Made by a program: the position numbers and the translations under genes
Source: an uncultured Nitrososphaerota archaeon
Lineage (GTDB): Archaea > Thermoproteota > Nitrososphaeria > Nitrososphaerales > CADDZS01
Direction of reading: 5' to 3'
NCBI GenBank assembly: GCA_963799845.1
Contig: CAWCYI010000004.1
Location: 640,001-704,000, forward strand
Length of the DNA stretch: 64,000 nucleotides
The notes under the pieces: model-generated
What the model was told of the DNA's origin: nothing
Databases searched by the model: none
Seen by the model: only the letters and a program-made list of their open reading frames with translations
Shown here: one piece after another, positions 18,286-32,746 of the stretch
Position numbering within the stretch: position 1 is the stretch's first letter
How the letters are laid out: the number at the start of each line of letters is the position of its first letter

Positions 18286-18294
18286 GCACAAAAC

Positions 18295-18333
18295 ATATAA
18301 CATTACAGTAATTCTACTGTAATACTACAGTCC
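18295..18333 (+). promoter_or_regulatory. radA promoter: TATA (ATATAA) followed by tandem TTACWGTAA-like boxes
   Basis: ATATAA 18295-18300; TTACAGTAA 18303, CTACTGTAA 18314, CTACAGTcc 18325; perfect inverted repeat ATTACAGTA-N4-TACTGTAAT. Confidence 0.7.
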
Positions 18334-18359
18334 GAAAAGGCGTAGGAAAGAAACAAGAA

Positions 18360-19415
18360 TTGAGTGATCATGGAATGAGCGAAGCAATAGAAGTTGACAT
18401 TGGTGACCTGCCGGGTGTTGGTCCAGCGACAAGGGCGAAGCTTGAAAGTGGCGGAATAACGACCATTCTCGACCTCGCAGCCTCGACCACAAACGAGCTC
18501 GTGGATAGCCTGAATCTGACGGAGGAGACGGCGCATAATCTGGTTTTCGAAGCTCAGAAGCTCTTGAAGGAGAAGGGTTATCTCGAAAAGGACCTCGTCT
18601 CTGCAAACGAGCTCTTCGCAAGAAGGGCAAAGATGCTTAGATGCACCACTTATTCTCAGAACCTCGACAATCTTCTCATCGGTGGAATCGAGACTCAGGC
18701 TGTGACCGAGTTCTACGGGGAGTTCGGTTCAGGAAAGACCCAGATCTGCCACACGGTATGCGTTTCTGCGCAGCTTCCGGTAGATCAACACGGACTGGGC
18801 GGTTCAGCCCTTTACATTGATACCGAGTCAACATTCAGACCGGAAAGAGTTGCCCAGATAGCTAAAGCAAGAGATCTGGACGTTGAAAGTATTCTGAACA
18901 ACATCCACGTCGCAAAAATCTACAACGCGAGCCATCTCGAACTTATCGTCAGGGCGATGGGTGGCCTGATCCAGCAAAACAACATCAAGCTCGTAATCGT
19001 CGACAGCATAATCAGCCTCCACAGGGCAGAGTTCCTCGGAAGGGGATCGCTTTCGGAACGACAGCAGAAGCTCAACGCGATCATGCACCGTTTGAAGAGG
19101 GTTGCCGAGATCTACAACGTCGCAGTTATCATCACAAATCAGGTACAGGCGACTCCGGACACTTTCTTCGGCGATCCAACTAAAGCCGCTGGAGGCAACA
19201 TCATCGGACACGCGTCTACCTACAGGATCTACCTGCGCAAGGCGGGACAGGAGCGCAAGGCAATTATGATCGACAGTCCGATGCACCCGTACGGCGATAC
19301 AAACTTCATGGTAGTTGAGGCCGGGATAACTGATCCGATGGACAAGAAACCTGCCAAGGTGTTCAAGAGTCCATCGAGGCATCAGGAAAAGGAACGCGAT
19401 AATGAGGAAGAGTAG
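18360..19415 (+). CDS. radA: DNA repair and recombination protein RadA
   Basis: N-terminal HhH (LPGVGP), GGIETQAVTEFYGEFGSGKTQ, YIDTESTFRPER, IVDSI, FLGRGSLSERQQKL, TNQV, GGNIIGHAST; exact start (18360 TTG vs 18375 ATG) uncertain. Confidence 0.97.
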   Translation: MSDHGMSEAIEVDIGDLPGVGPATRAKLESGGITTILDLAASTTNELVDSLNLTEETAHNLVFEAQKLLKEKGYLEKDLVSANELFARRAKMLRCTTYSQNLDNLLIGGIETQAVTEFYGEFGSGKTQICHTVCVSAQLPVDQHGLGGSALYIDTESTFRPERVAQIAKARDLDVESILNNIHVAKIYNASHLELIVRAMGGLIQQNNIKLVIVDSIISLHRAEFLGRGSLSERQQKLNAIMHRLKRVAEIYNVAVIITNQVQATPDTFFGDPTKAAGGNIIGHASTYRIYLRKAGQERKAIMIDSPMHPYGDTNFMVVEAGITDPMDKKPAKVFKSPSRHQEKERDNEEE

Positions 19416-19434
19416 GAAACTACTCTTTTTCCTA
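19413..19434. terminator. Hairpin/T-tract between the convergent radA and microprotein ORF
   Basis: TAGGAAA-ctactctt-TTTCCTA. Confidence 0.4.
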
Positions 19435-19439
19435 TGCCG

Positions 19440-19574
19440 TCAATACCAGGGTTGAACTTTGGTATGACAGGCGCATGGACATAGAATGTTGTATACCAAG
19501 CCGTCAACTTTAATCAAGGACTGGTTGTCGTGGTTGTGCTTACACGTCGCACAAACCTGCACCGTTACTGCCAT
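19440..19574 (-). CDS. 44-aa Cys/His-rich metal-binding microprotein (not in ORF track)
   Basis: MAVTVQVCATCKHNHDNQSLIKVDGLVYNILCPCACHTKVQPWY; AT-rich box about 25 nt upstream. Confidence 0.6.
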   Translation of the reverse strand: MAVTVQVCATCKHNHDNQSLIKVDGLVYNILCPCACHTKVQPWY

Positions 19575-19655
19575 GAGAAATGGTGAGCCAGTTTTATTTC
19601 TAAAACTCCAGATCAAGCGATGTTGACAAGAAGCATTCCAAAAAACTGACTCCCC

Positions 19656-20291
19656 ATGACTTCGAGACCGCTCTCAATAGATAATCAGGCAACATTCAAG
19701 AAGGGAATCGAACACCTCCGACGGAACGACGCCAAGCTAGCCACGGTGATTGAGAAACATGGACGTCTTGAGTTTACGGCAGAAGGCGAGATGTTCCAAT
19801 CTCTGGTCGAATCGATTCTAGGTCAACAGCTCGCGGGGGCCGCCGCATCTGCAATTACCGGTCGCGTGAAGAAACTCTATCCCGGCGGTACGATTGAGGC
19901 TCTTGCTCTTTACGCGACACCAATTAGGAAACTGAGAAAAGCCGGAGTTTCGCCCCAAAAGATTCGATATCTGAAGGATCTTTCACGCAGGGTCGTGAAA
20001 GGAAAACTCGATCTCGAATCTCTGAAAAATGAGGAAGATTCGGTACTTCTGGAAGCGCTTGATGAAGTTCTCGGGATCGGTCCCTGGACAATACACATGC
20101 TGCTGATTTTCACTCTCGGGCGACCTGATGTATTGCCTGTCGACGACCTCGGAATCAGAAAGGCTATCCAGGAGCTCTATTCGTTGCCAGATTTGCCAAA
20201 GAAAGAGAAGATTGAGGAGCTCGCGAAAAATTGGCACCCATACTGCTCCGTTGCAAGTTTGTATCTTTGGAGATACAAAGACTCGGCCTAG
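19656..20291 (+). CDS. alkA: DNA-3-methyladenine glycosylase II (AlkA, HhH-GPD)
   Basis: SILGQQL, GIGPWT, GRPDVLPVDDLGIR, WHPYCSVASLYLW. Confidence 0.92.
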   Translation: MTSRPLSIDNQATFKKGIEHLRRNDAKLATVIEKHGRLEFTAEGEMFQSLVESILGQQLAGAAASAITGRVKKLYPGGTIEALALYATPIRKLRKAGVSPQKIRYLKDLSRRVVKGKLDLESLKNEEDSVLLEALDEVLGIGPWTIHMLLIFTLGRPDVLPVDDLGIRKAIQELYSLPDLPKKEKIEELAKNWHPYCSVASLYLWRYKDSA

Positions 20292-20333
20292 GGTGGAAAG
20301 ACTCAATATTCCAAACTCTGACTGAATTGTGCG

Positions 20334-21155
20334 ATGTCAAATTACAAGGAATTTGCCGATGATTCACTTGTCATTTCCGTTGACGAAGCTGCGAAACTCG
20401 TCAACAACGCCAACGTCGTATTCATAGATACCAGAAATTACTGGAAGTATGTGAAGGGTCACATCCCCGGCGCGTTCAACCTTGAGCTGTACGCCTTCCA
20501 CTGGGTCGATACTTCGGAAGATGGAATCCGCGCATTCGCAAAGCAGATGCGAATGTTATTCGGATCACTGGGCATAAGTGAGAAGACTACCGTCGTATTT
20601 TATCAGAATAACAGCGGGTACGATGCGGCCCGAGGTGTTTGGCTGTTGAACTTTTTGGGGCATGGTGATTCAAGATTGCTTGACGGAGGGCTAAATCTCT
20701 GGAAAAGAAGAGGACTCGCGACAAGCACCGAAGATCCTAAACCTCGGAAGAAATCAAATTTCAGAGAGTTCTTGAATGAATCTGTGTTAATTACCAAGGG
20801 CTTGATGTCATCAGACATCAGGAATAAATCACTGCAGCTGATCGACGTCAGAAATGCAGGGGAGTTTGGCGGCACTTTCCGGCGGGCGTCAAAAGCCGGG
20901 CATGTACCTGGAGCTATCAACCTGGAGTGGAAGGCCGCGTTGAGAAATGATGGTACTTTGAAGGATGCCCGCCAGTTGAGCAAGTTGTATTCAATCTTGG
21001 ATAAGAACCGCGAGACTGCGACATACTGTCAGAGCGGTTATCGAGCAGCTCATTCTTGGTTAGTGCTGAAGTTGCTTGGCTTTGGCGACGTCAGGAATTA
21101 CCTAGGTTCATGGTACGAGTGGGGAAATGACTCTGACGCAAGTGTGACAAAATGA
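20334..21155 (+). CDS. Tandem-domain rhodanese / thiosulfate sulfurtransferase
   Basis: GHIPGA, LLDGGL, GHVPGAINL, active site CQSGYRA, YLGSWYEW. Confidence 0.92.
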   Translation: MSNYKEFADDSLVISVDEAAKLVNNANVVFIDTRNYWKYVKGHIPGAFNLELYAFHWVDTSEDGIRAFAKQMRMLFGSLGISEKTTVVFYQNNSGYDAARGVWLLNFLGHGDSRLLDGGLNLWKRRGLATSTEDPKPRKKSNFREFLNESVLITKGLMSSDIRNKSLQLIDVRNAGEFGGTFRRASKAGHVPGAINLEWKAALRNDGTLKDARQLSKLYSILDKNRETATYCQSGYRAAHSWLVLKLLGFGDVRNYLGSWYEWGNDSDASVTK

Positions 21156-21186
21156 ACAATCGCAAATTGAACCAGGTGATATCGTA

Positions 21187-21531
21187 ATGGCTGTGCGCGG
21201 GGCATCTGACAAGATCGTGGCGAGGGTATCTTCGTGGGAGGGAGTTACAGCTGCGCCGCATCGTTTCGGAGGAATAGAATTCAGGTTGGGTCGAAGGGAG
21301 ATCGGACACCTCCACGGAAATTATCAGGCAGACATTCCTTTTCCAAAACCGCTCAGAGATAGCCTGGTCGCGGAGGGAAGGGCAGAGCCACATCATATTC
21401 TGCCCGAAAGTGGCTGGATCACTTTTCGACTAGTGAAATCTGAAGATATAGAGAAGGCGGTCGAACTCTTTAGGATGTCTTACGATAATTCCAGATCCAA
21501 AATAGACGGTTCAAGACCGCTCAATTCGTGA
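21187..21531 (+). CDS. DUF5519 / luciferase-like family protein
   Basis: PHRFGGIEFRLGRREIGHLH, AEPHHILPESGWIT. Confidence 0.78.
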   Translation: MAVRGASDKIVARVSSWEGVTAAPHRFGGIEFRLGRREIGHLHGNYQADIPFPKPLRDSLVAEGRAEPHHILPESGWITFRLVKSEDIEKAVELFRMSYDNSRSKIDGSRPLNS

Positions 21532-21585
21532 ACTTCAGCAAGAATATTACCACGTTGAAAGAGGGGTGGAACACTGGACAAATTA

Positions 21586-22392
21586 TTGGCGACTAGGAAC
21601 AAGATTACACCTTTTCTCGATCGCGTTTACAACAAGGACGTACTGGAGTTACTTCGCGAGCTCCCCGACAACTCGGTAGACTGCATCTACGCTGATCCGG
21701 ATTACAACGTGGGTGTAAAGTACAACAACGTTTCTTACACAAAAAAATTCGATGAATACATTTCCTGGTGCATATCATGGTCAAGAGAGAGCCATCGGGT
21801 GCTGAAAGAAAGTGGAAATCTATTCATCATAAACTATCCAAAGAATAATGCTTACTTGCGAACTCGGTATCTGGATGAAGCGTTCTGGGATGTTCAGGAA
21901 TACGTGTGGATTTACAATACAAATATCGGCCACAGTAAGAGGAGGTTCACCACGGCGCACAGATCAATTCTCCATTGCACAAAATCCGAGGATAATGATT
22001 TCTTCAAAGAAAACGTTGCCGAGCCGTACGAAAATCCGACGGACCGAAGAATCAAAAAACTACTCCATGACGGAAAGCCGGGTCGAATGCCGTACAGCTG
22101 GCTGTATGTCGATCTTGTGAAAAACGTTGGCTTCACGAAGACATTCCATGCTTGCCAGATTCCGGAAGATCTGTCTCACAAATTGATCGCCAGCTCAACC
22201 CAGCCGGGAGACACTGTCCTGATACTCTTCGGAGGGAGCGGATCGGAGATCATGGAGTGCAGGAAAATGAAAAGGCGATTCATAGCTGCTGAAATCGACA
22301 AGCGTTATTTCGACCTGATCTCACGAAGATTGAAGACAGACGGCCCTCTGCCAGAAGAGCTTCGTCTAATGAGCAATATGAAGAAAATCTAG
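21586..22392 (+). CDS. Orphan beta-class amino (N6A/N4C) DNA methyltransferase
   Basis: Catalytic motif IV reads DPDY before SAM motif LFGGSGS; no adjacent restriction endonuclease. Confidence 0.85.
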   Translation: MATRNKITPFLDRVYNKDVLELLRELPDNSVDCIYADPDYNVGVKYNNVSYTKKFDEYISWCISWSRESHRVLKESGNLFIINYPKNNAYLRTRYLDEAFWDVQEYVWIYNTNIGHSKRRFTTAHRSILHCTKSEDNDFFKENVAEPYENPTDRRIKKLLHDGKPGRMPYSWLYVDLVKNVGFTKTFHACQIPEDLSHKLIASSTQPGDTVLILFGGSGSEIMECRKMKRRFIAAEIDKRYFDLISRRLKTDGPLPEELRLMSNMKKI

Positions 22393-22419
22393 GCAGATAT
22401 GACTCGCCGAACTATTCCC

Positions 22420-22824
22420 TTATTCAGCGACTAATTCTTCGACGACGTCAAATCCTTCGTCTGTTGATGGTGGCTGAAGTATCTTGTAGTAGAATCGAAC
22501 GGCTTTATCTGGAACATGCTCTTTGCCTGTCCGCGAGGCATTTCTCTGCAAAGCAAGATCAACTGGACAGTTGATGTAAATCGCGCGGATTGGAATCCCG
22601 AACAATTTTGCAATTTGTACATATTTCTTTCTTGACTTTTGAGTTGTATTCGTATTGTCCACGATGATGTCGCTACCGTTCATGAGGCAAGTCGCTATCT
22701 CCTCATCCTCTTTCTTGCGAGTGTGCAGAGTGTCGAGGTTCAAGCGCTTATGATTCGGAAATCTATTCCTCGCAATGGTGGACTTTCCGCTGCCAGGAAT
22801 GCCGACAAGTACGATGATTTCCAA
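22420..22824 (-). CDS. Polynucleotide-kinase-like P-loop protein (AAA_33)
   Basis: GIPGSGKST, LNLDTL, IVDNTN, QRNASR, PPSTDEGFD. Confidence 0.85.
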   Translation of the reverse strand: MEIIVLVGIPGSGKSTIARNRFPNHKRLNLDTLHTRKKEDEEIATCLMNGSDIIVDNTNTTQKSRKKYVQIAKLFGIPIRAIYINCPVDLALQRNASRTGKEHVPDKAVRFYYKILQPPSTDEGFDVVEELVAE

Positions 22825-22891
22825 GCGACTCTCCGAAAATTTGATCCAAAAAAAAGTGAAGACGATGAGATCGAACCGATCTCAATCGTTC

Positions 22892-23875
22892 CTACATCTT
22901 CAGTGATTCTTTGAGAGTCTTGTACCTGTTTCTGATAGTGACTTCAGTCACTCCGGCCGCTTGAGCGTAGTCCTTCTGCGTCTTTGCCTCGTTTTCCATT
23001 ACGCTCGCGACATAGAGAGCAGCTGCGGCAAGTCCCATGGGATCTTTTCCAGCCGAACCGCCTGTCTCCTGAGCTTTACGAAGGATCTCGAGTGCACGTC
23101 TTTGAGTTCTCTCGCTCGCTCCAGCCTTGCTTCCGATTCTCGAAATGTACTTCGCAGGATTCCTTACTGGCATTCGCAAGTCCATCTCCTTCAAAATCAA
23201 CCGATAGCTCTGGGCCAAGTCGTTTTTCTTTACACCGCTAGCTGACGCCAAGTCCTTCAAAGTCCTCGGTGTCTCGGTGTCTCGCAACGCGGCATAGAGC
23301 GAAGCTGTAATCATGGAAGAAATAGATCTTCCCCGGATCAGTTTCTTCTCCATCGCTTTACGATAGATGTACGCGGCCTTCTCGATGACCGGCCCGCCAA
23401 CATTAATTTTCTCGGCGAGTCTATCCAGTTGACTGAAAGCCTGCCTCAAATTTCTGTCGGCAGAATTATGTACCTTGCTCCTGCGATCCCAAGTTCGCAG
23501 ACGTTCCAGCTGATTTTTCATCGATGCCTTCAGCGCATTTCCGGAGGCATCGGTGCTCTCAAGACCGATTACGGTTGAGAGGCCCATGTCATGCAGAGCG
23601 AGACTACTTGGCGAGCCAGTTCTGCTCCTGTCGTCCTCGCCCTGTTCCTTTGCAAAGTTTCTCCACTCTGGGCCGGTATCCTCGATACCTTCCTTAATCA
23701 CGTAACCGCAATTTGTGCAAACCTGCTCTCCAGTATTTGCATCCAAAACCAAACTGCTCTGTCCGCACCTCGGGCACCTGATAAGACCCTGAGGCCTTCT
23801 CACCATCGACAAATTCTTGCTATTCTCTATGCTCAAATCTCCTACACCTCTCTGGAAAGTATTATTAAGGAGCAC
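22892..23875 (-). CDS. tfb: Transcription initiation factor IIB (TFB)
   Basis: Zn ribbon CPRC..CTNC, GPEWR, LHDMGLST, two cyclin repeats, AGVTEVTIRNRY. Confidence 0.96.
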   Translation of the reverse strand: MLLNNTFQRGVGDLSIENSKNLSMVRRPQGLIRCPRCGQSSLVLDANTGEQVCTNCGYVIKEGIEDTGPEWRNFAKEQGEDDRSRTGSPSSLALHDMGLSTVIGLESTDASGNALKASMKNQLERLRTWDRRSKVHNSADRNLRQAFSQLDRLAEKINVGGPVIEKAAYIYRKAMEKKLIRGRSISSMITASLYAALRDTETPRTLKDLASASGVKKNDLAQSYRLILKEMDLRMPVRNPAKYISRIGSKAGASERTQRRALEILRKAQETGGSAGKDPMGLAAAALYVASVMENEAKTQKDYAQAAGVTEVTIRNRYKTLKESLKM

Positions 23876-23922
23876 ACGCCCTTATAAACCTTTGTCTTCC
23901 CGAGACACTATGAACGGAAGAT

Positions 23923-24642
23923 TTAGGGCTTTGAGGGCGACTCTGTCGGAAGTTTCTCTCCGGACTTCGAATCGGTGGGATTTTGGGGCGAAGAAGGTCT
24001 GTTCGCTACCCAGTGGACTATTAAAGCAAAAGCAGCAAACAACGGAATCAGGACCAAATCGCTAATCTCCGGATAAATCGTCTCGACGAACCAGAAAGTT
24101 GCGAACGATAGCAATACCGAAGACACAACAACTTTCATGTTTGCCTGTTTTATCTTCCGAACCTGATTTCGCAGAACGAAAGTCGAAACGATGACGATTG
24201 CAATCCCGACAATTAAACCGAGTATTGTTGAAACATAATTGTTGGGGAGGAGACCAACGAGAACTATCGAGGCTTCAAAAGCCTCGATCGCCCCCACAGA
24301 AAATCCTGTGTAAAATAATCCTTTTTCAAATTCTTCTGAAGCGCCAAACCCCCCTTTCCTTCCTCTGACAACAGATCGCCTAGCGCTGCGGGTCAACCTC
24401 AGACCAAAGTAAAGTAGTAGAATTGCACCTACCAATCGAATTACAACTATTGGGAGAAGGGAAATCGCGTCACCGAGCAAGAGAGTCGGGACGAGTACTA
24501 CAGTGATCCCAAGAGCGACGTACAGAAAAGCTGCATGTTTGCGGGTATCCCCGTATAGTGCTACGGCGACAGCTGCCGCTTCAACTAGCTCAAGGGTAGT
24601 TATTCCCAGTGCAGCTAAAAATACCGCGGGATCAAACGGCAA
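23923..24642 (-). CDS. Membrane protein with duplicated ExxEA motif (COG4280 / TMEM165-FTR1-like metal transporter)
   Basis: TTLELVEAAAVAV and GAIEAFEASIVLV in two halves, 6-7 TM. Confidence 0.65.
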   Translation of the reverse strand: MPFDPAVFLAALGITTLELVEAAAVAVALYGDTRKHAAFLYVALGITVVLVPTLLLGDAISLLPIVVIRLVGAILLLYFGLRLTRSARRSVVRGRKGGFGASEEFEKGLFYTGFSVGAIEAFEASIVLVGLLPNNYVSTILGLIVGIAIVIVSTFVLRNQVRKIKQANMKVVVSSVLLSFATFWFVETIYPEISDLVLIPLFAAFALIVHWVANRPSSPQNPTDSKSGEKLPTESPSKP

Positions 24643-24702
24643 AATGTTTCGATAAGAAAAGTTCCAAATTATAAATGCCTTGTGAGCTAAGAGGGCTCCG
24701 GT

Positions 24703-25137: not shown

Positions 25138-25383
25138 GATTTTTGAAATTTCGAATTTGAGGGCAAATTGCTCTCCGGAAGAGCCACGACTCAATGGATT
25201 ACAAAAAAGCTTGCGAGATCCACCATATTTAAGATGTTGAGTTCCAATCGGTACACAGAAACCGAATAATTCAGGGAATTCATTCTTGTAGACGAGAAAC
25301 CCAAAATACCTGTAGAAACTGAATCGGTGTTTGGTTAATTGATGCGCGAGCGAAGTCCAAATCATTCCAGAAGACTTGACGGC

Positions 25384-26847
25384 ATGAAGACCGGATTTAC
25401 TTTTGATGACGTTCTACTAGTTCCGAAATATTCCGAAATTAGATCCAGGAAGGAAGTTTCGACTACTACCGTATTGACTGAGAAAATTGAACTCAGCATT
25501 CCAATTGTGTCAGCAAATATGGACACCGTGACCGAGGCCGACATGGCAATCGCGATCGCGAGAGAAGGTGGAATAGGGATCATCCACCGTTTCATGAGTC
25601 CCGAACAACAGATTGCGCAGGTCTCCAAAGTGAAGCGAACCGAATCAATAATCATCGAGACTCCTTACACGCTTCGCGAATCATCAAATGTTGCAGAAGT
25701 CAAGCGTTTGATGAGCGAGCGAAATGTTGGTGGCATTCTAATCGTATCCGAAGATGGAAAGCTGAAAGGAATTGTCACAACCCGGGATCTGAGGTTCGTT
25801 GACGAACCCAATTTGAAAGTCGGTGAAGTCATGACCAGGAGATCAGATCTCGTCGTTGCCCCCAAGAAAACTACTCCCGAAAGGGCGAGGGAAATAATGC
25901 GAGAAACAAAAATTGAGAAGCTGCCGCTCGTCGATAAGGAGGATCGACTGGCAGGTTTGATTACAGCCAAGGACATCCTCAAAAGAAAGCAGTTCCCGAA
26001 CGCAAGCAAGGATCCAAGGGGAAGACTGAGGGTCGGCGCGGCAGTCGGCGTCAAGGGGGATTTTCTCGAAAGGGCAAAAGGCCTGCAGGATGTTGGGGCA
26101 GATGTGCTAGTCTTGGATATTGCCCACGGGCACAGTCGACATGCCCTTGAAGCTATCATGGAGATCAAGAAAACTCTGGGACGAGACCTGCAATTAATCG
26201 CCGGCAACGTCGCGACCGAGCGAGGCGCTCAAGATCTGATAAGAGCTGGAGCCGACTCGGTGAAGGTCGGAGTCGGGAGTGGATCAATTTGCATCACAAG
26301 AATAGTTACTGGATCGGGAGTCCCTCAGCTGACTGCGATTTCCGAATGCGCCAAGGCAACCAAGGATGCTGGAGTTACTTTGATTGCCGACGGCGGGATA
26401 CGAAATTCGGGCGATATTACAAAGGCTTTGGTTGCCGGAGCCGACAGCGTCATGGTGGGAAGCCTTCTCGCAGGAACAGATGAAAGCCCCGGAGAGATTG
26501 TGTATCGAGGAAATTATCGGTATAAAGTTACCCGGGGCATGGCATCGATGTCCGCGAGAAAAGACCAGCTGTCGAGGGGGAGAGACTTGCGGTTGGACAT
26601 CCGCGCGGAAAACCTCGAAGAGCAGGAACCTGATCTAATTGATTATGTCCCCGAGGGAGTTGAGGCGATTGTCCCGTACAAGGGACGCGCGGTAAATGTG
26701 ATACGACAGTTGGTCGGAGGGCTCAAAAGCGGCCTAAGCTACTGCGGGTCGAGGAATCTCAAGGATCTTAGATTGAACGGCGAATTCATGAGAATCACAG
26801 AAGTTGGGTTGAAAGAGTCGATGCCTCACGATGTGAAGGAACTCTAG
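25384..26847 (+). CDS. guaB: IMP dehydrogenase
   Basis: [18 protein letters not shown], two CBS domains, [33 protein letters not shown]. Confidence 0.96.
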
Positions 26848-27040
26848 CAATCTACGCGCCTCTCATATCCGGTTTGATAAATTTCGTTCTGCTCAATATC
26901 GGCCAACAAATCTAGCCATTATTGTTGACAGTTCCTGTAATCATCGAAACTGAGCGCACTCGTTTTAGCCAGTGGCTACTATGTTTTGTTTGGAGTTTAT
27001 CGCGGATCAGAAAATCACTTCGTGAATTGGAGGAATTAAT

Positions 27041-28108
27041 TTGGACGCCGAGAAAAACAAGAAACTCCAGCAATACGCGACGATTCTCACGGATCAAGCA
27101 AAAGAAGCCGAGCTGTCGGGTAAATCCGACGACGCGATAAAGCACTACCTCAAGTTGGTGGACGTATTCCTAGTCCTAGCGAGCGAGGCGGCCGATCACA
27201 ACACGTGGTTACAATACATCAGACAAGCGGAAGCGTACCAAACGAGAATCAGGTCTCTCGTCCCAAAGGATCAGGGTTCTCAAGACTTGATCGGTAGGAT
27301 TCCCCCACCTCCTAACGAGAGAATAAATCCGCTTATTGTGCGTAAAATGGACCCCGTTTCTCAACAAACAACCAGCCCGCCTACGAATCAGTCAGCGGCG
27401 AATCCTCCCAGGTCAAGTCCAATCACAAAAATTCTCAAGCCTTTTCAGAATCGCGAGGTAGAAGTCGATCCGACTACAAACTTAGTGGCGAGGCAAACGA
27501 TTCAAACACCTGCTCCATCCCCGACCATGCAATCACAGGTATCTCCGCCCGCTCCTCCTAAACCATCGGTGGCTCCAGCCGAGGAAAAAAGTCCTGTACC
27601 GCACGAGCTTTACGAGCGAGCGCTGTCAGAAAATAGGATCCTCCATGAGAGGCTTCAGACTATAGTAAAAGAGACGGATGATAAAGCGGCTTTCCTAGAG
27701 TCTAGAAATCGGGAGCTTGAGGAGAGAATTGCCATGATGGTATCCAGATCAGAGTATGATCTCCTTCGAGCGGAATTTGAGAACACGGTGCCGAAACACG
27801 AGTATGATCGAGTAAAAACGGAGCTCTCAAACACCGTTCCGATCACGCATTACGATCAACTCCTAGATCGGATTGCAAACATGGTCCCCAGGGAAATCTA
27901 CATGACTTCCGAGCGCCGTATTCTCGAACTCGAAGACAATCTTCGCCACTCTGTTCCATTCAACGTGATTGACGAAATCGCCAACGAAGTCTCTTACGTC
28001 AGTATTCTAGCAGAGGTTCCTCCGATCGTTTCGGAGAACCCAAAGAAGGACAATGACGAAGAGATTCAGCTTGTTAAGAACGCCGAAGAAAATCCTAAGC
28101 TATCGTGA
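27041..28108 (+). CDS. MIT-domain protein with Pro-rich linker, coiled coil and 16-aa repeats
   Basis: N-terminal three-helix pattern A..A.EAE..G..DDAIKHY....DVF....YQTRIRSL resembling Vps4/CdvC MIT; VxxxxY repeats; no Walker motifs. Confidence 0.65.
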   Translation: MDAEKNKKLQQYATILTDQAKEAELSGKSDDAIKHYLKLVDVFLVLASEAADHNTWLQYIRQAEAYQTRIRSLVPKDQGSQDLIGRIPPPPNERINPLIVRKMDPVSQQTTSPPTNQSAANPPRSSPITKILKPFQNREVEVDPTTNLVARQTIQTPAPSPTMQSQVSPPAPPKPSVAPAEEKSPVPHELYERALSENRILHERLQTIVKETDDKAAFLESRNRELEERIAMMVSRSEYDLLRAEFENTVPKHEYDRVKTELSNTVPITHYDQLLDRIANMVPREIYMTSERRILELEDNLRHSVPFNVIDEIANEVSYVSILAEVPPIVSENPKKDNDEEIQLVKNAEENPKLS

Positions 28109-28664
28109 CTTCGACTTTCTTCAACTTGTCAAAGTAGTGTTTTCGGAACTTTGCAACTTTTGGAGCTACTATCGCCCGACAGTAAGGTTGGTACGGATTA
28201 TTCTTGAAGTAATTCTGGTGGTACTCCTCAGCTTTGAAGAATTCCACAAGAGGAACTAGCTGCGTCACGGTCGGCCTTCCCCACATCTTACTCTTGTTTA
28301 TCTCGTCGATGACTTCCTCGGCTACTTTCTTTTGATTCTCGTCGCTGTAGAAAATCACTGACCGGTATTGGCTGCCAGTGTCCGCACCCTGTCTGTTTAG
28401 GGTGGTGGGGTCATGGATTGAGAAAAAGACCTGAAGTATTTCTCGATATGTGATTACGGAAGGGTCGTACGTGACCCGAACAACCTCAGCATGACCAGTT
28501 TCGTCCGAACAAACGTCTTCATAGGTCGGATTCCTAACGGATCCACCTGAATATCCAGATTCGACCTTCAAGACACCCTTCAGCTCAGTGTAAACCGCTT
28601 CGAGGCACCAGAAGCAACCTCCGCCGAGAGTCGCTATTTCAAGATCGGGCAAATTACTACTCAT
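28095..28664 (-). CDS. msrA: Peptide methionine sulfoxide reductase A
   Basis: GGGCFWCLE, TGHAEVV, HDPTTLNRQGAD, AEEYHQNY. Confidence 0.97.
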   Translation of the reverse strand: MSSNLPDLEIATLGGGCFWCLEAVYTELKGVLKVESGYSGGSVRNPTYEDVCSDETGHAEVVRVTYDPSVITYREILQVFFSIHDPTTLNRQGADTGSQYRSVIFYSDENQKKVAEEVIDEINKSKMWGRPTVTQLVPLVEFFKAEEYHQNYFKNNPYQPYCRAIVAPKVAKFRKHYFDKLKKVEVTIA

Positions 28665-28711
28665 GGGTGAGGTAAAACGATGTTCCGGGGTATAAACGTG
28701 TCAGTCAACCC

Positions 28712-29128
28712 CTAGATCATGTCTTTGGCCAATTTACCCGGACGGGTTCTTCTCACTAGATCGGTCGAAGTAATGATCCCTACGAGCTCGCCGCTTTCTA
28801 ATACGGGGAGTTTCGTTATGTTGTTTTTCGACATAATGGCTGACGCCTCGGACAGCGTCTCGCCAGCTTCAATAGTAACTACGGGCGTGGTCATTACGCT
28901 GGCAGCTGTGATTTTTTGAGGATCGCGCCTTTTCATTACTGCCTCACGAATTATGTCGCTCTTGGTGGCGATCCCGATTACTTTCTTGTTTTCAAGTACG
29001 ACGACGCAACCAATGTCGTGATCAAGCATTTCTTGTGCGATGTCATAAGCAGTAGAGGTAGAATCGACGGACACCACCTTTTTCGACATGAGATCCTTGA
29101 CAGGTGCAGTCATCGCCAGCTGGGTCAA
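28712..29128 (-). CDS. Tandem CBS-domain protein
   Basis: VKDLMSK, IGCVVV, VMTTPVVT, LPVLESGELVGIITSTDL. Confidence 0.9.
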   Translation of the reverse strand: MTQLAMTAPVKDLMSKKVVSVDSTSTAYDIAQEMLDHDIGCVVVLENKKVIGIATKSDIIREAVMKRRDPQKITAASVMTTPVVTIEAGETLSEASAIMSKNNITKLPVLESGELVGIITSTDLVRRTRPGKLAKDMI

Positions 29129-29285
29129 TTGGTATTCGGATAACTGGTTTCGCGATGTGACATATTAGGCTAGCTTTGCACTTTGATTGATAAACGGAGA
29201 ACGTAGTGCCAGACTTGCCACGCAATCAAGTAGCGTAGCAAATCAACGTAAAGGAAAAAGTTCAGTCTGAGAAAATTGGACGGAG

Positions 29286-29417
29286 CTAGCCCGAGGACGT
29301 AAATTCACGAGCTTCCTCAGCCGTTATAGAATTATCGTCTGAGTAAAGACAAGTCTGACATGTTCCGTCCTCTATCTCGCTTTCACACTTTTCGCAGTTC
29401 TCTTCAATGACCAACAT
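29286..29417 (-). CDS. 43-aa zinc-ribbon microprotein
   Basis: MLVIEENCEKCESEIEDGTCQTCLYSDD (two CxxC). Confidence 0.55.
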   Translation of the reverse strand: MLVIEENCEKCESEIEDGTCQTCLYSDDNSITAEEAREFTSSG

Positions 29418-29530
29418 CTTACCGCCTTCTAAACAGAAGCTCCTGTAAGTACTTACAAAGAAGGATGGAAATAATCGTTTAGTCAATATTGATTCTTCTG
29501 GGGAATCATACAAAATTCAGGCAAACGTTC

Positions 29531-30850
29531 TCAGGAGATTTCGCCGATTAGAAACGCAGAGATTTCATCGCCCTGTCTTACACTCGTTCTTCCGTCTCTT
29601 CCGATGACGGCAATCCCATTCGCCTCACGCAGCCACGACGAGAACTGTGCCTCCGTTGGTCTGACGATCTTCGCCCAGTACATCTCCCCATCTCGGGAGA
29701 TTCTAACCCTGAGAAAGTGTGTCAGCCCCGCCTTACCATCGTAGTCGTCATCGATCGTTGCACGGATCATGGGGTAATCCAAGGATGAACTCCCCCCAAG
29801 CTTCAGGATAGCCGGTCGACCGAAGACAAGGAAACTGACAATCGCAGATGTTGGGAATCCGGGTAATAGAATCAACGGTTTTCCGCGGCGTACTGCAAGA
29901 CCAGTCGGACTCGAAGGCCGCATGGCGACCCCGTGAACCAGGATCTTGACGCCTTTGATAGACTCGGCTGCCTTGGTGACGTAGTCTCTTTCGCCAACCG
30001 AAGAGCCGGCGGAAAGGAAAAGTGCATCGTACTTGAAGCCTTCAATCATTTTGGCTCTGACCTGCTCCAGATTATCTCGCGCGATTCCAAGATCCTCTGG
30101 AATCCCGCCGAGCTCATTAATCATCGAAGAGAGAAACGGACGATTCGAATCAAATATGCCGACTCGATTCGTAGATCTACGCTTTCTACTTCCCCCTAGA
30201 CCGACATCCTCGAGTTCGTCTCCCGTTGAGAAGAACGCCACTCTGGGCTTCGCGTAAACCAGAAATCGATTGATTCCCTGCATCGAGAGGAGGGCAATGT
30301 GTTGGGGTCGCAGACGCGTACCAGCAGAGAACAGGATCTGTCCTTTTCTCAAATCCTGTCCCGGGGAAAGAATGTTTTCGCCGACTTTGGCAGGCTTTGT
30401 TGCCCTGAGACTGTCTCGTTCCACCTGAGCGTATTCAATCATGACAACGGCATTAGCTCCCTGTGGAATGTAAGCACCTGTTGAGATTCTCGCGGCTTCG
30501 CCAGCCCGAATGGAGAGCCTCGGAACCTCTCCGATCCGGACTTCGCCGACAATTTTGAGCGGTTGATTTTCCTCGACACCCGTGTCCTCAGGGAGTTTGA
30601 TCGCATATCCGTCGCGAGTCGACCTTGCGAACTTTGGAAGATTCTGCGGACTCATCAGATCCTTAAACAAGACTCTGTTATCGGATTCTGAAATCGTTAC
30701 TTCTTCAGATCTGGTTTTTCGAATCTCGTTTAGCAAAATTTTTAGGGCGTCGCTGACGCTCATGTGTTCTTCGGCCCTGTCAACACCGTGATAGTGTGAG
30801 TGGTTGTGTTCTTCTTCCATTGTCATATCATCTGCAAAGTTTCTGGACAA
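29531..30850 (-). CDS. moeA: Molybdopterin molybdotransferase MoeA
   Basis: RSTRDGYA, ISTGAYIPQGANAVVMIE, FSTGDEL, SAGSSVGERD, LPGFPTS; His-rich N-terminus. Confidence 0.93.
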   Translation of the reverse strand: MSRNFADDMTMEEEHNHSHYHGVDRAEEHMSVSDALKILLNEIRKTRSEEVTISESDNRVLFKDLMSPQNLPKFARSTRDGYAIKLPEDTGVEENQPLKIVGEVRIGEVPRLSIRAGEAARISTGAYIPQGANAVVMIEYAQVERDSLRATKPAKVGENILSPGQDLRKGQILFSAGTRLRPQHIALLSMQGINRFLVYAKPRVAFFSTGDELEDVGLGGSRKRRSTNRVGIFDSNRPFLSSMINELGGIPEDLGIARDNLEQVRAKMIEGFKYDALFLSAGSSVGERDYVTKAAESIKGVKILVHGVAMRPSSPTGLAVRRGKPLILLPGFPTSAIVSFLVFGRPAILKLGGSSSLDYPMIRATIDDDYDGKAGLTHFLRVRISRDGEMYWAKIVRPTEAQFSSWLREANGIAVIGRDGRTSVRQGDEISAFLIGEIS

Positions 30851-30860
30851 GCTTGCCGAA

Positions 30861-31730
30861 CTAACTAGCTACCTGACCAGGGTGCTCTAGTCTAATGTCT
30901 CTCTTCGGGTTATAGATTGCTATTACGAGGAAAGCGATCATAGCTAACAAACCGAGCCCAATGACTGCAAAATTATGTAATGAGAAATTCGCGACGACTC
31001 CATCAACCATGAGTAGAACGTAAGCTATCACTGAATCGCGGCCATTGCTTCTCTTGATTAAGTTTGAACCGCTCTTCGGGGAAAGCAGTGAAAGGCAGAC
31101 GAAAATCATCAATGCAACGAGGACAAACCAACCTAGAAAGTTCGTCAACGGGATTCCATCGAGCTCGGGCAGGGGGAGGAACTGACCCGTCCAGACCCAA
31201 TATCCGTAGGCTGAAAACATTGGGTCTATCATAAAGTCCCACGAAACGGCACCAAACGCCGATAGCAACGCTATTTTTGCAATCAGTGAAGCCTTGCCGG
31301 AACCCCCGCTAAATTGTCTAGAATTCCCCGCGACAATGCTGTAGGACAGGTACGATATTACAAACCAGACAAGTGGAACTACAACAGGTACGCCTAGAAA
31401 TTTTTCACCCAGGAAATCAGTGTAGTAGTATTTCCCAAATGGAATCCCAGAATTCGTTCCAAGAACTTCTGCTAAAAATCCGATTGCTGAAGTAATTGCT
31501 AGAAACGAAATGGCATTTTTGATCCCAAACTCGTAAATTGATTGTCCCAGGGCAAAGAAAAGTAACGCGAACGACAACCCAAAGAATATGTCCGCAGATA
31601 CGCTGAACTTGAAAATCAGACCGAGCACAATGAAGATGAGAATTACTGCGTAGACCGCGAGTAGAATATGTACAACCAAGCTTCCGAGGGTTCGAGAGTT
31701 GTTCCCCGATTGCAAAGTTGATTTACTCAT
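30861..31730 (-). CDS. Carotenoid biosynthesis membrane protein (CruF/DUF422 family)
   Basis: AEVLGTNSGIPFGKYYYT, LGVP, WDFMIDP, GYWVW, GIPLTNFLGWF. Confidence 0.82.
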   Translation of the reverse strand: MSKSTLQSGNNSRTLGSLVVHILLAVYAVILIFIVLGLIFKFSVSADIFFGLSFALLFFALGQSIYEFGIKNAISFLAITSAIGFLAEVLGTNSGIPFGKYYYTDFLGEKFLGVPVVVPLVWFVISYLSYSIVAGNSRQFSGGSGKASLIAKIALLSAFGAVSWDFMIDPMFSAYGYWVWTGQFLPLPELDGIPLTNFLGWFVLVALMIFVCLSLLSPKSGSNLIKRSNGRDSVIAYVLLMVDGVVANFSLHNFAVIGLGLLAMIAFLVIAIYNPKRDIRLEHPGQVAS

Positions 31731-31787
31731 GACGTGCTTCTGGGTATTCCGCCTCTTTGCTGTGCCTCTGTTTTGAAAAAAGTTTCC

Positions 31788-32690
31788 CTACTGCGCGAAA
31801 TTGTCGAGGGTTGGAGCTGCATCGTCATCTCCAGGAGACCAGCATAAGGAAGACCCAGAAGTGTCTAGCCCATATTCGGTTGCTTTACTAATCACTTGCT
31901 GGCGAACTGTTGATCCACCCTCCATGAGTTTCTCGGCACTCTGCCCTGATCTCTCCTCAAACATTTGTTTGGATTGTTCGTATCCTACGAACCGCAACAA
32001 ACCAACCGTCACTGATGAAACCTCGACTTCCTTCAGGCTCCTGAATAGGCTGTCAAGATCAGTCAGTATTAACTTTGGAATTAGCGGAGCCATCGAAACC
32101 CAGGTTGTTATGCCAAAGTCACGTAGCTCTGCCAAAGCTTCCAGTCTTTTTTCAAGCGATGGAACTCCCGGTTCGTAAAACTTTGTAGGAACGGTGGAAA
32201 TGGAGAAACCCACCCGAATCCAATCAAATTCTCTGAGGATATCAATATCCCTTAGAACGAGTGGAGACCTCGTTAGGAGGAGTACGGGAAATCTGTGCTT
32301 TGAAAGCACTTTGAGAACCTTTCTTGTAATCTTGAATCTAGCTTCCACCGGCTGGTACGGATCAGACGCGCTTGAGACAAAGACTACCTGCTTTCTCGCT
32401 CTCGCGAGCTCCCCGTCAAGAACGCTCGGTGCATTGATCTTCGCATCAACGTAATCTCCCCACCTTCTTTCATCGTGAATCAATGAAGGCGCGTAACAAT
32501 ACACACACCCATGCGTACATCCTCTGTAAAGGTTGATAGTGTACTCGGTGGATGATCCAAAATTCATTTCATGTAGGAGCGAGGAGCATCTGATTTCGCG
32601 TACTTCCACTCTTGAATTTTTTGAACGTGCCGTCGAATGATCAAGAGAATTCTCTAGTGAGAAAAAAGAATTCAATGAAGCTGAAGACAA
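31788..32690 (-). CDS. Radical SAM protein, spore photoproduct lyase (SplB)-like DNA repair family
   Basis: INLYRGCTHGCVYCYA, SSASDPYQPVE, LTRSPLVLRDID, EPGVPS..RL. Confidence 0.88.
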   Translation of the reverse strand: MSSASLNSFFSLENSLDHSTARSKNSRVEVREIRCSSLLHEMNFGSSTEYTINLYRGCTHGCVYCYAPSLIHDERRWGDYVDAKINAPSVLDGELARARKQVVFVSSASDPYQPVEARFKITRKVLKVLSKHRFPVLLLTRSPLVLRDIDILREFDWIRVGFSISTVPTKFYEPGVPSLEKRLEALAELRDFGITTWVSMAPLIPKLILTDLDSLFRSLKEVEVSSVTVGLLRFVGYEQSKQMFEERSGQSAEKLMEGGSTVRQQVISKATEYGLDTSGSSLCWSPGDDDAAPTLDNFAQ

Positions 32691-32714
32691 TTCGCGAAAA
32701 GTCTTATGTCATTT

Positions 32715-32746
32715 ATTATAAAGTGTTACTGTAATCTTACTGTAAC
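32715..32746 (-). promoter_or_regulatory. Promoter of the SplB-like gene: tandem TTACAGTAA boxes abutting TATA (TTTATAAT)
   Basis: Minus strand GTTACAGTAAGATTACAGTAACAC-TTTATAAT; boxes at 32726-32734 and 32737-32745. Confidence 0.7.

Follow-up and report, generated by a model that had tools for sequence, protein, structure and literature searches.

Phase-locked tandem palindromes at repair-gene promoters and a candidate RHH repressor of a putative damage regulon in Nitrososphaerales

Tandem palindromic boxes with TACWGTA cores, set 11 bp apart, recur at promoters across the genome of an uncultured Nitrososphaerota archaeon, and this motif is real and phase-locked. On balance, we consider it probable that the boxes are the operator of an autoregulated RHH repressor that controls a repair and translesion-synthesis regulon in a Nitrososphaerales family without detected amoA. 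The candidate repressor is a 122-aa protein whose gene is itself a member of the regulon, the one found at motif sites in the largest number of genomes.

The starting point was a 64,000-nucleotide stretch of this genome (hereinafter the window), on which an earlier note had reported palindromic nonamers at the promoters of a radA gene and of an 'SplB-like' gene. When the sequence was re-read, the boxes lay exactly where they had been placed (Table 1); a recount again gave 18 identical positions out of 24 between the radA and radical-SAM 24-mers, and the nonamer pairs, with an 11-bp centre-to-centre spacing at both promoters, and the third, degenerate copy at radA were all present. The third radA box lies over the expected transcription start, and the promoters of radA orthologues likewise have a third unit, TAC(W)(G/A)T. 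The TATA box of the radical-SAM gene is ~27 nt from the start codon (TTG at 32690), which implies a leaderless mRNA, and the same arrangement of TATA and boxes is seen again in its orthologues.

Table 1. Positions of the promoter elements, boxes and genes (window coordinates, except for the candidate regulator)
Feature	Position	Strand	Remarks
TATA box, radA-paralogue promoter (CATATAAC, TATA-like)	18294..18301	+	A/T-rich element, same place in 10/10 orthologous promoters
Operator box 1, radA paralogue (TTACAGTAA, exact palindromic nonamer)	18303..18311	+	kept in 10/10 orthologous promoters
Operator box 2, radA paralogue (CTACTGTAA)	18314..18322	+	11 bp from box 1
Operator box 3, radA paralogue (CTACAGTCC)	18325..18333	+	degenerate; 11 bp from box 2
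radA paralogue	18375..19415	+	346 aa from the ATG common to orthologues
Radical SAM protein, PA0069/Rv2578c (COG1533, 'SplB-like') type	31788..32690	-	300 aa
TATA box of radical-SAM gene (TTTATAATAAA on minus strand)	32712..32722	-	3 nt downstream of box 2
Operator box 2, radical-SAM gene (TTACAGTAA on minus strand)	32726..32734	-	11 bp from box 1; over BRE position
Operator box 1, radical-SAM gene (TTACAGTAA on minus strand)	32737..32745	-	tandem boxes in orthologues too
Candidate regulator	G000 C6:1683078-1683446		122 aa; own promoter box-bearing

Searched with up to two mismatches, TACWGTA-N4-TACWGTA has three tandem matches in the window, all of them at these two promoters; the earlier note had noticed the motif in no other intergenic region. 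Shuffled sequences gave an expectation of 0.20, and 0 of 100 shuffles reached three. Single boxes (up to one mismatch) number 20 against 7.6 ± 2.5 expected. One more exact single box, at 54400, stands without a partner within coding-like sequence. A search of the whole genome (4.6 Mb; 86.7% complete) with the 20-mer TTACWGTAANNTTACWGTAA, allowing up to two mismatches, recovered 18 matches in 16 loci, against none in five third-order Markov simulations. Sorted by spacing, the genome-wide box pairs comprise 11 at 11 bp and one each at 9, 22 and 32 bp, with none at any other spacing within 9–33 bp. The motif is not equally common at unrelated genes: 13 of the 16 loci adjoin a TATA box at most 41 nt from a gene start, and repair- and replication-type functions dominate. 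Two non-coding paralogous loci in this genome (G000) also bear boxes.

Each refuting condition of the earlier note that computation can address came out in favour of its reading. The motif is kept in orthologous promoters of both window genes while the flanks diverge: the radA boxes are present in 10/10 orthologous promoters from two genera (9/9 without the unpublished genome G001), and tandem boxes lie just upstream of the TATA box of radical-SAM orthologues in six genomes from three genera. Enrichment was found in 13/13 genomes of the family (5–18 sites versus 0–2 for a reversed control; 12/12 genomes without G001), and none in 72 genomes from 19 other families of the order (0–3 sites versus 0–4 for the control). 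Counted by gene over the 11 clustered genomes of the family, the sites fall at the 122-aa protein (9), a PPB2-like protein (8), a DUF5343 protein (7), radA (7), the radical SAM protein (6), a PolB2-like polymerase (4, in one genus) and PCNA (3). No amoA was found in this box-bearing soil family. In one relative (G011), some motif matches flank TnpB-like insertion-sequence copies.

The functions of the box-bearing genes are mostly recombination, translesion synthesis and replication. The 346-aa protein of the window is a RadA (NCBIfam RadA equivalog, 401 bits against a cut-off of 259; Pfam Rad51, 7.5e-85), with its start kept as MSEAI across orthologues. Judged by sequence comparison, this box-bearing radA is a paralogue: the other radA of the genome (G000 C6:518442) lacks boxes and is nearer to the radA of another family (59–60% versus 51% identity). 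A further box-bearing operon codes for three proteins: one PPB2-like (81 aa), one iRadA-like (231 aa; RadA, 4.6e-6; Walker A degenerate on reading the sequence) and a family-B polymerase (DNA_pol_B, 5.5e-13; exonuclease domain, 1.1e-7) whose reading frame is interrupted in G000. The PPB2 assignment of the upstream protein (81–99 aa) is by size and position only. With its family-B polymerase gene next to the genes of the iRadA-like and the small PPB2-like protein, the operon in its predicted domain content matches the archaeal translesion PolB2 mutasome operon (PolB2, iRadA, PPB2), which is damage-induced in Sulfolobales (PMC11791011). Boxes are also found at one of two PCNA genes (TIGR00590 above cut-off; the other PCNA gene lacks them), one of about nine TFB genes, an XPB-like helicase and the DUF5343 gene, with the TFB and the XPB-like helicase being members in this genome only. 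The box-bearing RadA, PCNA and TFB are extra paralogues rather than housekeeping copies. Of the earlier label 'SplB-like', the radical SAM domain stands (Pfam Radical_SAM, 8.2e-15), but no equivalog-level match to a spore-photoproduct lyase family goes with it: the best NCBIfam matches are PA0069 (6.3e-40) and Rv2578c (9.4e-34), both far below their equivalog cut-offs, no SPL model is among the NCBIfam matches listed, and we accordingly call the protein PA0069/Rv2578c-type.

Several other genes accompany this set. Several members have no known repair link, among them small coiled-coil proteins and an MFS transporter paired with a small membrane protein; a dCTP deaminase-like gene lies downstream of the candidate regulator; and the regulon of one relative includes a Hel308-like helicase. 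In peat metatranscriptome contigs from one study, the radA paralogue is covered from 18341 to 19440, with nothing upstream; contigs cannot show a start, and this coverage is a weak hint that fits a transcript starting at or just past the operator.

The 122-aa protein gave an AlphaFold model with a pLDDT of 91.3 (45 in a run on a shallow alignment), in which a predicted N-terminal β-α-α fold points to an RHH domain, a fold that typically spans ~45–55 residues. Residues 2–58 align to the RHH domains of TraM (Z 7.1, rmsd 2.0 Å over 53 residues) and NikR (Z 5.4), and also to those of PutA, SvtR, AmrZ, omega, Arc and many antitoxins (Z 7.1 to 4, rmsd 1.5–3 Å overall). The first 16 entries of the structure-match list are all RHH-type; VIA Z-scores of 5–7 fall where, by the tool's own account, unrelated matches are common, and the argument lies in the consistency of the RHH hits, not in their height. 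Sequence-family searches gave no Pfam match for this protein or 85 relatives and no NCBIfam match for the protein itself; a Foldseek search of PDB structures came back empty (best E 0.19), a PDB profile search reached TraM only at E 0.27, and in the nearest named ESM Atlas cluster 14% of the members carry RHH_1. As a homodimer, the protein scored 0.45 against 0.03 for the best of three controls, the homodimer mark being one reached by 20/30 proteins solved as one-chain pairs and by 1/23 solved as single chains; since RHH dimers have been solved, the score may owe something to resemblance to those structures. Contacts agree by at least 59% between runs, with a partner pLDDT of at least 72, and the predicted contacts (8:8, 6:10–13, 44:44, 47:47) describe a two-stranded antiparallel ribbon with helix packing. 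The dimeric regulator proposed in the earlier note is therefore plausible, the most widely kept regulon member being an RHH protein that is predicted to dimerise. The C-terminal α/β domain, of four strands and two helices, carries a Cys/Cys/His set (Cys93 and Cys101 invariant; His103 and D75 nearly so) and gave no convincing solved fold (best Z 4.0).

These C-terminal residues bear on the question of what the circuit would sense. It is unlikely, albeit deserving of serious attention, that the circuit is real and its signal is not DNA damage but oxidative or metal stress acting via the Cys/Cys/His residues, or the cell cycle or replication, with the repair genes as one output. The conserved C93, C101, H103 and D75, in a NikR-like combination of an RHH domain with a C-terminal sensor domain, favour such a signal, as does the presence in the regulon of PCNA, TFB, the membrane protein with the MFS transporter, and the dCTP deaminase-like gene. 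The RadA, PCNA and TFB members are, however, extra paralogues, which argues against a routine S-phase programme, and the same kind of core gene set is damage-induced in bacteria. In addition, RadA, the PolB2-type mutasome, the COG1533 radical SAM protein and the XPB-like and Hel308-like helicases correspond to a set that is damage-induced in Sulfolobales (PMC11791011), whereas aCcr1, an archaeal RHH cell-cycle repressor acting between TATA and start codon (PMC9976878), speaks for a cell-cycle signal. Our preference remains a signal tied to DNA damage or to replication stress.

The family of the 122-aa protein (510 cluster representatives) occurs in 54/81 genomes of the order, and the exact motif is restricted to one family; hence the pairing of protein and motif rests on the divergence of orthologues and not on presence and absence. 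Homologues in five other families have tandem boxes directly after the TATA of their own genes, with a core TAC(C/G)G(TA) and a spacing of ~10 bp in most. Their predicted ribbon is GFKSITVSE in three families, and GWKSLTITE and GWKTLQVKQ in two, against GFSVITITQ in the box-bearing soil family, so that neither the box core nor the predicted DNA-reading ribbon is the same in the soil family as in the five others. In an amoA-bearing family, the exact TACSGTA-N3-TACSGTA is present in 36/41 genomes (1–4 sites each versus 0–1 for the control). In at least 20/38 genomes, drawn from 15 genera, it adjoins the radA start, an adjacency checked in sequence for four genomes. In one genome (G039), a homologue immediately precedes a radA paralogue and another Rad51-like gene, with a DUF72 gene in divergent orientation; in another family (f15), boxes were found at the homologue's own promoter with no enrichment elsewhere in the genome.

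A gene that is only a member of the regulon would likewise have boxes at its own promoter. We regard it as rather improbable that the motif is a genuine repair-regulon operator bound by some other factor, with the 122-aa RHH protein merely regulated as a second-tier regulator or antitoxin-like protein. In favour of another binder, the RHH assignment relies on moderate Z-scores with no sequence-family match, and DUF5343 (7/11 genomes) and the conserved members of 81–99 aa and 84–93 aa could bind DNA. Against it, homologues in five families keep related boxes at their own promoters, with core and ribbon both differing; short tandem palindromes one turn apart are the usual RHH layout; and no DNA-binding fold was assigned in this analysis to the DUF5343 or PPB2-like proteins.

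Two promoter classes emerged from the position of the boxes. In class A, the TATA box is followed after 1–4 nt by the boxes and then by the start codon (the 122-aa candidate, the PPB2-like/iRadA-like/PolB operon, the RadA paralogue and the DUF5343 gene); in class B, the boxes precede the TATA box by 2–4 nt (the radical SAM gene and the second PCNA), a geometry kept in six and three genomes, respectively. The earlier note had proposed occlusion of the TATA/BRE/TSS region, and this would follow from boxes that lie between TATA and start codon or over the BRE upstream of TATA. It is quite improbable that the factor activates at class-B promoters and is thus a dual regulator: a place upstream of TATA is frequent for archaeal activators, and its conservation in six and three genomes fits that role, but the proximal box is only 2–4 nt from TATA and covers the BRE, which favours competition with TFB, and, as both classes share a functional theme, one sign of regulation is simpler. 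Least credible of all, and barely so, is a repeat, mobile-element remnant or chance likeness with no regulatory role: the matches beside TnpB-like copies in G011 and the two non-coding G000 loci might suggest it, whereas the empty Markov controls, the 11-bp spacing, the fixed register to TATA in orthologous promoters with diverged flanks from three genera, and the coherent gene functions oppose it, and enrichment in 13/13 family genomes but in none of 19 other families contradicts it.

For the repressor circuit that we prefer, we infer that the 122-aa protein binds the boxes, represses and is relieved upon damage. Each palindromic nonamer would be read by one of its dimers, and two or three dimers would lie next to one another at intervals of one helical turn. 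Such an array may hinder recruitment of RNA polymerase at class-A promoters and contact of TFB with the BRE at class-B promoters. The repressor would be freed by a signal tied to DNA damage or to replication stress, which the Cys/His domain may sense, and all members, together with the gene for the repressor itself, would then be turned on.

The circuit would be SOS-like in logic and built from unrelated parts. As in LexA/SOS systems, a palindromic operator lies over the promoters of a recombinase (radA), a translesion 'mutasome' operon (PPB2-like/iRadA-like/PolB), other repair genes and the presumed repressor's own gene (the 122-aa RHH protein). Unlike LexA, the candidate is an RHH protein with no protease domain, and in place of the E. 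coli-type LexA box (CTGT-N8-ACAG) there are TACWGTA cores 11 bp apart at archaeal TATA/BRE promoters; LexA_DNA_bind (PF01726) has no matches in the 86.7%-complete genome, and Peptidase_S24 (PF00717) has one marginal 26-bit fragment that covers model positions 33–75 only. Like tandem-repeat RHH repressors (Arc, Mnt, CopG, MetJ, omega), the candidate combines a predicted β-α-α fold and antiparallel-ribbon dimer with an operator in which two or three short repeats follow each other at roughly one-turn intervals and with boxes at its own promoter, as autoregulation predicts; the operators of Arc, Mnt, omega and CopG are short tandem palindromes one helical turn apart. As NikR does, it joins its predicted RHH domain to a C-terminal domain in which metal-type ligands are conserved. 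It differs from these repressors in having no Pfam RHH match, an unmatched C-terminal fold and repair genes as targets. A TFB paralogue takes part in the Sulfolobales damage response (Orc1-2, TFB3, Sta1) as well, namely TFB3. That response further includes PolB2/Dpo2, iRadA, PPB2 and a radA paralogue (PMC11791011; PMC2175319). Its regulators comprise an Orc1/Cdc6 protein together with activators such as Sta1, which activates sso0777, whereas here the geometry is of repressor type, the candidate factor is an RHH protein, the motif is unrelated and the lineage is Nitrososphaerales. The aCcr1 protein of Sulfolobales is likewise a small archaeal RHH factor that represses about a dozen genes via a conserved box between TATA and start, but it has 58 aa and no second domain, controls cell division (cdvA) and uses another box (PMC9976878); no sequence similarity between it and the 122-aa protein was detected in this analysis.

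A literature search found no description of such a circuit, nor of a damage regulon in Nitrososphaerales. More tentatively, and with somewhat less than even confidence, we propose that a LexA-independent 'archaeal SOS' circuit extends across Nitrososphaerales, comprising a new family of autoregulated RHH repressors with a Cys/Cys/His sensor, control of radA in ammonia oxidisers, and an expansion to ~15 promoters (among them those of dedicated, inducible RadA, PCNA and TFB paralogues and of the mutasome) in the soil lineage. Were this order-wide circuit to hold, oxidative or genotoxic stress would be linked straight to derepression through the sensor domain.

Re-reading of the sequence placed the boxes at the radA promoter and at the promoter of the SplB-like radical SAM gene where the earlier note had put them, i.e., as tandem TTACWGTAA-type palindromes (core TACWGTA) beside the TATA box, with a spacing of 11 bp that holds at both promoters and with 18 of 24 positions identical between the two 24-mers. 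The note had noticed the motif in no other intergenic region of the window, and the tandem pattern was indeed confined to these two promoters: with up to two mismatches there are three matches, against 0.20 expected from shuffles, and a single exact box at window position 54400 is partnerless. An extra TFB gene with two TFIIB repeats lies between the two operator-bearing promoters and is itself without boxes.

Coordinates of the promoter elements and of a further TFB gene in the window
Feature	Position	Strand	Basis
TATA-like element, radA promoter	18294-18301	+	sequence
Box 1, radA promoter, TTACAGTAA	18303-18311	+	sequence
Box 2, radA promoter, CTACTGTAA	18314-18322	+	sequence
Degenerate unit 3, radA promoter, CTACAGTCC	18325-18333	+	sequence
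Two exact TTACAGTAA boxes, radical SAM gene promoter	32745-32737 and 32734-32726	-	sequence
TATA box, radical SAM gene promoter, three bases past the boxes	32722-32712	-	sequence
TTG start codon, radical SAM gene	32690	-	sequence
Extra TFB gene	22892-23875	-	

The genome to which the window belongs (G000, with the window at C4:640001-704000; 4.6 Mb in nine contigs, 47% G+C) contains 18 matches to the 20-mer TTACWGTAANNTTACWGTAA in 16 loci (five, six and seven matches at zero, one and two mismatches, respectively), whereas five third-order Markov simulations gave no match at up to two mismatches; from three to four mismatches on, the counts are at background level. Eleven box pairs in this genome are spaced by 11 bp and one each by 9, 22 and 32 bp, with the 22-bp pair being a product of a triple array, and none occurs at any other distance within 9–33 bp. 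At 13 of the 16 loci a TATA box adjoins the boxes and a plausible gene start lies at most 41 nt away; two of the remaining three consist of paralogous non-coding sequence or questionable ORFs, and the third is 152 nt away from a gene for a luciferase-like monooxygenase. Operator-like boxes are shared by two paralogous stretches in which no gene is obvious (C4:1471513 and C4:1651034, on the window's contig; fetched loci L006 and L007, around position 3000), and about 60 nt of conserved sequence comes after the boxes (TAATAnTGACCGATG..GGTC..TTGTACC). No Rfam family matched at the three box-bearing loci without an obvious gene, these stretches included. The two stretches may correspond to a small RNA or small ORF that is controlled in the same way. 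Three box-bearing sites on this contig fall inside 10 kb (C4:1462092, 1467221 and 1471513), namely that of the TFB paralogue, one that has no credible gene, and one in a non-coding paralogous stretch.

Across the window's family, each of the 13 genomes has 5–18 sites as against 0–2 for a reversed-pattern control (12 of 12 genomes when the unpublished G001 is left out). Likewise, in a sample of the order, all nine genomes of the family show an excess of sites, while in 19 other families (72 genomes) there are 0–3 sites per genome versus 0–4 for the control. The earlier note had tied its proposal to conservation in orthologous radA promoters, and this is borne out: the TATA box and three units are kept amid divergent flanks in 10 of 10 loci with upstream sequence, from two genera (nine of nine without G001; one further, truncated locus was dropped). 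None of 19 radA loci of other families has TACWGTA units; one of them (L043) has related TACSGTA boxes instead. We fetched 79 site regions from ten relatives, excluding G001 and G003 (98% identical to G000), and clustered the first ORFs on both sides of each site, upon which the clusters shared by at least two genomes took in 56 of 93 site blocks. Of 11 genomes (G000 included), these sites are found at the gene for a 122-aa protein in nine, at a PPB2-like gene in eight, at DUF5343 and radA genes in seven each, at the radical SAM gene in six, at the gene for an 88-aa membrane protein in four and at the PCNA gene in three; a PolB2-like gene with its own operator occurs in four of 11, in one genus.

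The promoters display two arrangements. In class A (the 122-aa gene, PPB2-like operon, DUF5343, radA, membrane protein and PolB2), the TATA box is followed after 1–4 nt by two or three boxes and a short leader or none; in class B (the radical SAM gene in six genomes of three genera and PCNA in three genomes), the boxes precede the TATA box by 2–4 nt, with the start about 25 nt beyond it. The array hence occupies the initiation region in class A and the BRE position in class B; archaeal repressors act from both. In one relative (G011; loci L118, L120, L121 and L125), several motif matches flank copies of a repeated TnpB-like gene (~419 aa; typed as IS200/IS605 from its N-terminal sequence), and in another (G005; L090) a TnpB-like gene and a Hel308-like helicase gene stand on either side of one site; the operator may be carried by an insertion sequence or may have been picked up by one.

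Among the genes behind the boxes in G000, the window's RadA (NCBIfam equivalog) and PCNA (TIGR00590) score above cut-off, and the window's radical SAM protein is of the PA0069/Rv2578c type. A 394-aa XPB/ERCC3-like helicase falls under the equivalog cut-off, as does the subfamily match of TFB under its own, and the 297-aa DUF5343 protein has a Pfam match under the gathering score, with 30 of 30 ESM Atlas matches being DUF5343 clusters. The 88-aa membrane protein, with an MFS transporter gene downstream, gives only weak Pfam hints; proteins of 87, 89 and 164 aa belong to no family, nor does the 122-aa protein, whose gene is followed by a dCTP-deaminase-like gene. An operon after a triple array codes for an 81-aa helical protein, a 231-aa degenerate RadA homologue and a family-B DNA polymerase, in agreement with the PolB2/iRadA/PPB2 'mutasome' (PPB2 being identified by size and position only), which Timinskas et al. 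(PMC11791011) describe as a conserved operon induced by DNA damage in Sulfolobales. In G000 the boxes mark additional copies of the RadA, PCNA and TFB genes: the genome has a second PCNA gene, about nine TFB genes and, on contig C6, a second radA without boxes that is nearer to the radA of another family (59–60% identity versus 51%). The PolB2-like family-B polymerase gene downstream of the operator in G000 (C4:563786-567705 on the minus strand, beyond the window and partly in locus L002) is broken: residues 3–161, 164–480 and 478–597 of a relative's protein map to three separate frames, and a 1.6-kb insert with a hint of intein splicing separates the segments 164–480 and 478–597. The interruption amounts to an intein plus two apparent frameshifts; decay of the gene or errors in sequencing could account for the latter.

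In a single study, four peat metatranscriptome runs yielded contigs over the radA paralogue only, the longest of which (1103 nt, 90% identity, window positions 18341-19440) begins 34 nt ahead of the ATG and ends 25 nt past the stop; none covers the operator or the upstream gene. This fits a monocistronic radA transcript starting at or just past the boxes, with the reservation that contig ends prove no start and DNA carry-over is possible.

As a reader of the boxes, the TFB paralogue was rejected, given that TFB reads the BRE and not tandem palindromes flanking the TATA box, and that this particular TFB is in the regulon of G000 only. Our candidate regulator is the 122-aa protein (G000 C6:1683078-1683446), the member found at motif sites in the largest number of genomes; in its gene's own operator, a weaker first box (TCCTGTAA) is kept in six of nine genomes. 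Profile searches of Pfam, NCBIfam and PDB with this protein recovered nothing significant. A word-indexed search found 141 homologues, all of them unnamed proteins, at least 64% identical and, where a source name was given, from Nitrososphaerales metagenome genomes; a full HMMER search recovered 510 homologous cluster representatives (E ≤ 1e-3), and the 85 homologues scanned have no consistent Pfam family. Within this protein family, C93 and C101 show no variation, and H103 and D75 almost none. An AlphaFold model from a deep alignment of 85 diverse relatives (pLDDT 91.3), for which a first run with 25 close relatives (pLDDT 45) was set aside, has residues 1–12 extended, helices at 13–30 and 36–56, followed by a sheet of four strands plus two helices. 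Foldseek gave no match to this model in PDB; a structural aligner placed residues 2–58 on ribbon-helix-helix (RHH) DNA-binding domains, including TraM (Z 7.1, rmsd 2.0 Å, 53 residues), NikR, PutA, SvtR, AmrZ, omega, Arc and many antitoxins. Because the Z-scores are only moderate, we gave weight to the uniformity of this match list; the C-terminal domain has no convincing fold match (best Z 4.0). The predicted homodimer scored 0.45 as against 0.03 for the best control, a mark that 20 of 30 proteins solved as same-chain pairs attained, as did one of 23 solved as single chains. Across the runs, contact agreement was at least 59% and pLDDT at least 72, and the symmetric ribbon contacts of the predicted dimer match the RHH expectation, though resemblance to solved RHH dimers may be the source of this score. 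By its predicted fold and dimer, though not by sequence family, the 122-aa protein is an RHH factor. RHH repressor operators are usually short tandem palindromes spaced by one helical turn.

The order Nitrososphaerales has homologues of this protein in 54 of 81 genomes, and we fetched 20 of their loci from five other families (f4, f8, f12, f15 and f18). At 14 of these (f12, f4, f15, f18 and one of six in f8), tandem boxes lie between the homologue's TATA box and start codon; none were seen at the other five f8 loci, which code for more distant homologues. The box core in these families is TAC(C/G)G(TA), with a spacing of about 10 bp in f12, f15 and f8 and with GTAC units 16 bp apart in f4, and the predicted ribbon reads GFKSITVSE (f12, f4, f15), GWKSLTITE (f8) or GWKTLQVKQ (f18), as against GFSVITITQ in the window's family. 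Core, spacing and ribbon hence all differ between the window's family and the others, a co-variation that is suggestive only, since it amounts essentially to one contrast. In f15, TTACGG-N4-TTACGG occurs as an exact match solely at the homologue's own promoter and is not above control elsewhere in these genomes. In one genome (G039), a radA paralogue follows directly downstream of the homologue, as does a second Rad51-like gene, and a DUF72 gene is divergent from them; Timinskas et al. (PMC11791011) reported DUF72 as enriched in the neighborhood of polB2. At radA paralogues of four other families (L026, L027, L028, L032), there is a C-rich box, CCCCC(C)TCCCC(C), some 20–25 bp upstream of the TATA box. 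It appears to be a cis element of another kind serving the same paralogue, and two of these four genomes are without any homologue of the 122-aa protein.

A sister system is seen in family f12, where amoA was found in all three genomes tested. In the window's family, no amoA turned up in the three genomes searched (G000, G008 and G011; 87%, 94% and 96% complete, respectively), and this family therefore appears not to be ammonia-oxidizing; this search was repeated over five genomes, the search of G000 alone having had no responding control genome. The exact pattern TACSGTA-N3-TACSGTA is present in 36 of 41 f12 genomes, with 1–4 sites each versus 0–1 for the control; with one mismatch allowed it does no better than the control (7/7, 6/5, 1/3, 0/0 and 4/4), and our counts accordingly use exact matches only. 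At least 20 of the 38 genomes with radA, spanning 15 genera, have a site at most 35 nt from the start of this gene (a minimum, since seven of the 38 had sites not listed); among the listed sites, 11 of 38 genomes are without an exact radA site, one of these having a one-mismatch site. In four f12 genomes read in sequence, the last box overlaps the radA ATG. Other f12 targets include the homologue's own gene, a 115-aa protein after a triple array, a 63–66-aa cysteine-rich protein adjoining a gene for a chorismate-binding enzyme, and a site near a lysine-rich coiled-coil protein. We found no literature description of a TACCGTA box in Thaumarchaeota. In three complete amoA-bearing genomes, the homologue is convergent with amoA at about 1.4 kb (G023:C1:386925-389228, G037:C1:1309890-1312252 and G073:C1:148233-150519), which may be mere conserved gene order of the family.

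Taken together, these observations are consistent with an RHH repressor that regulates its own gene along with repair and translesion genes, with the modeled 122-aa protein as the predicted binder of the boxes: its dimers would occupy two or three boxes and thereby close the TATA-proximal promoters of the set. The inducing signal may be DNA damage, or else a redox or metal cue perceived by the Cys/Cys/His domain, and at class-B promoters the factor might activate instead of repress. Such a circuit would work like SOS, yet with a regulator outside the LexA family; no LexA was found in G000. Its nearest archaeal precedents are aCcr1, an RHH repressor that acts between TATA box and start codon and controls cell division (PMC9976878), and the damage response of Sulfolobales, which relies on activators (PMC11791011, PMC2175319).

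In the full-text literature searched (main texts), we found neither the motif nor the 122-aa protein nor a damage regulon in Nitrososphaerota, and no regulator-operator pair described before for this phylum. To our knowledge, archaeal damage sensing and repair switching are known in outline for Sulfolobales only, through activators. The present finding offers a precise operator, a defined gene set covering the archaeal translesion mutasome together with extra RadA, PCNA and TFB paralogues, and a named candidate for the repressor, from a new protein family; if true, it would represent SOS-type logic reached by convergent evolution from unrelated parts. Family f12, with complete 1.6-Mb genomes, may include cultured strains, which would make the system testable at the bench without cultivating the soil lineage. 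Nitrososphaerota include globally abundant ammonia oxidizers, and the finding would open a way into the damage-induced mutagenesis of organisms behind nitrification.
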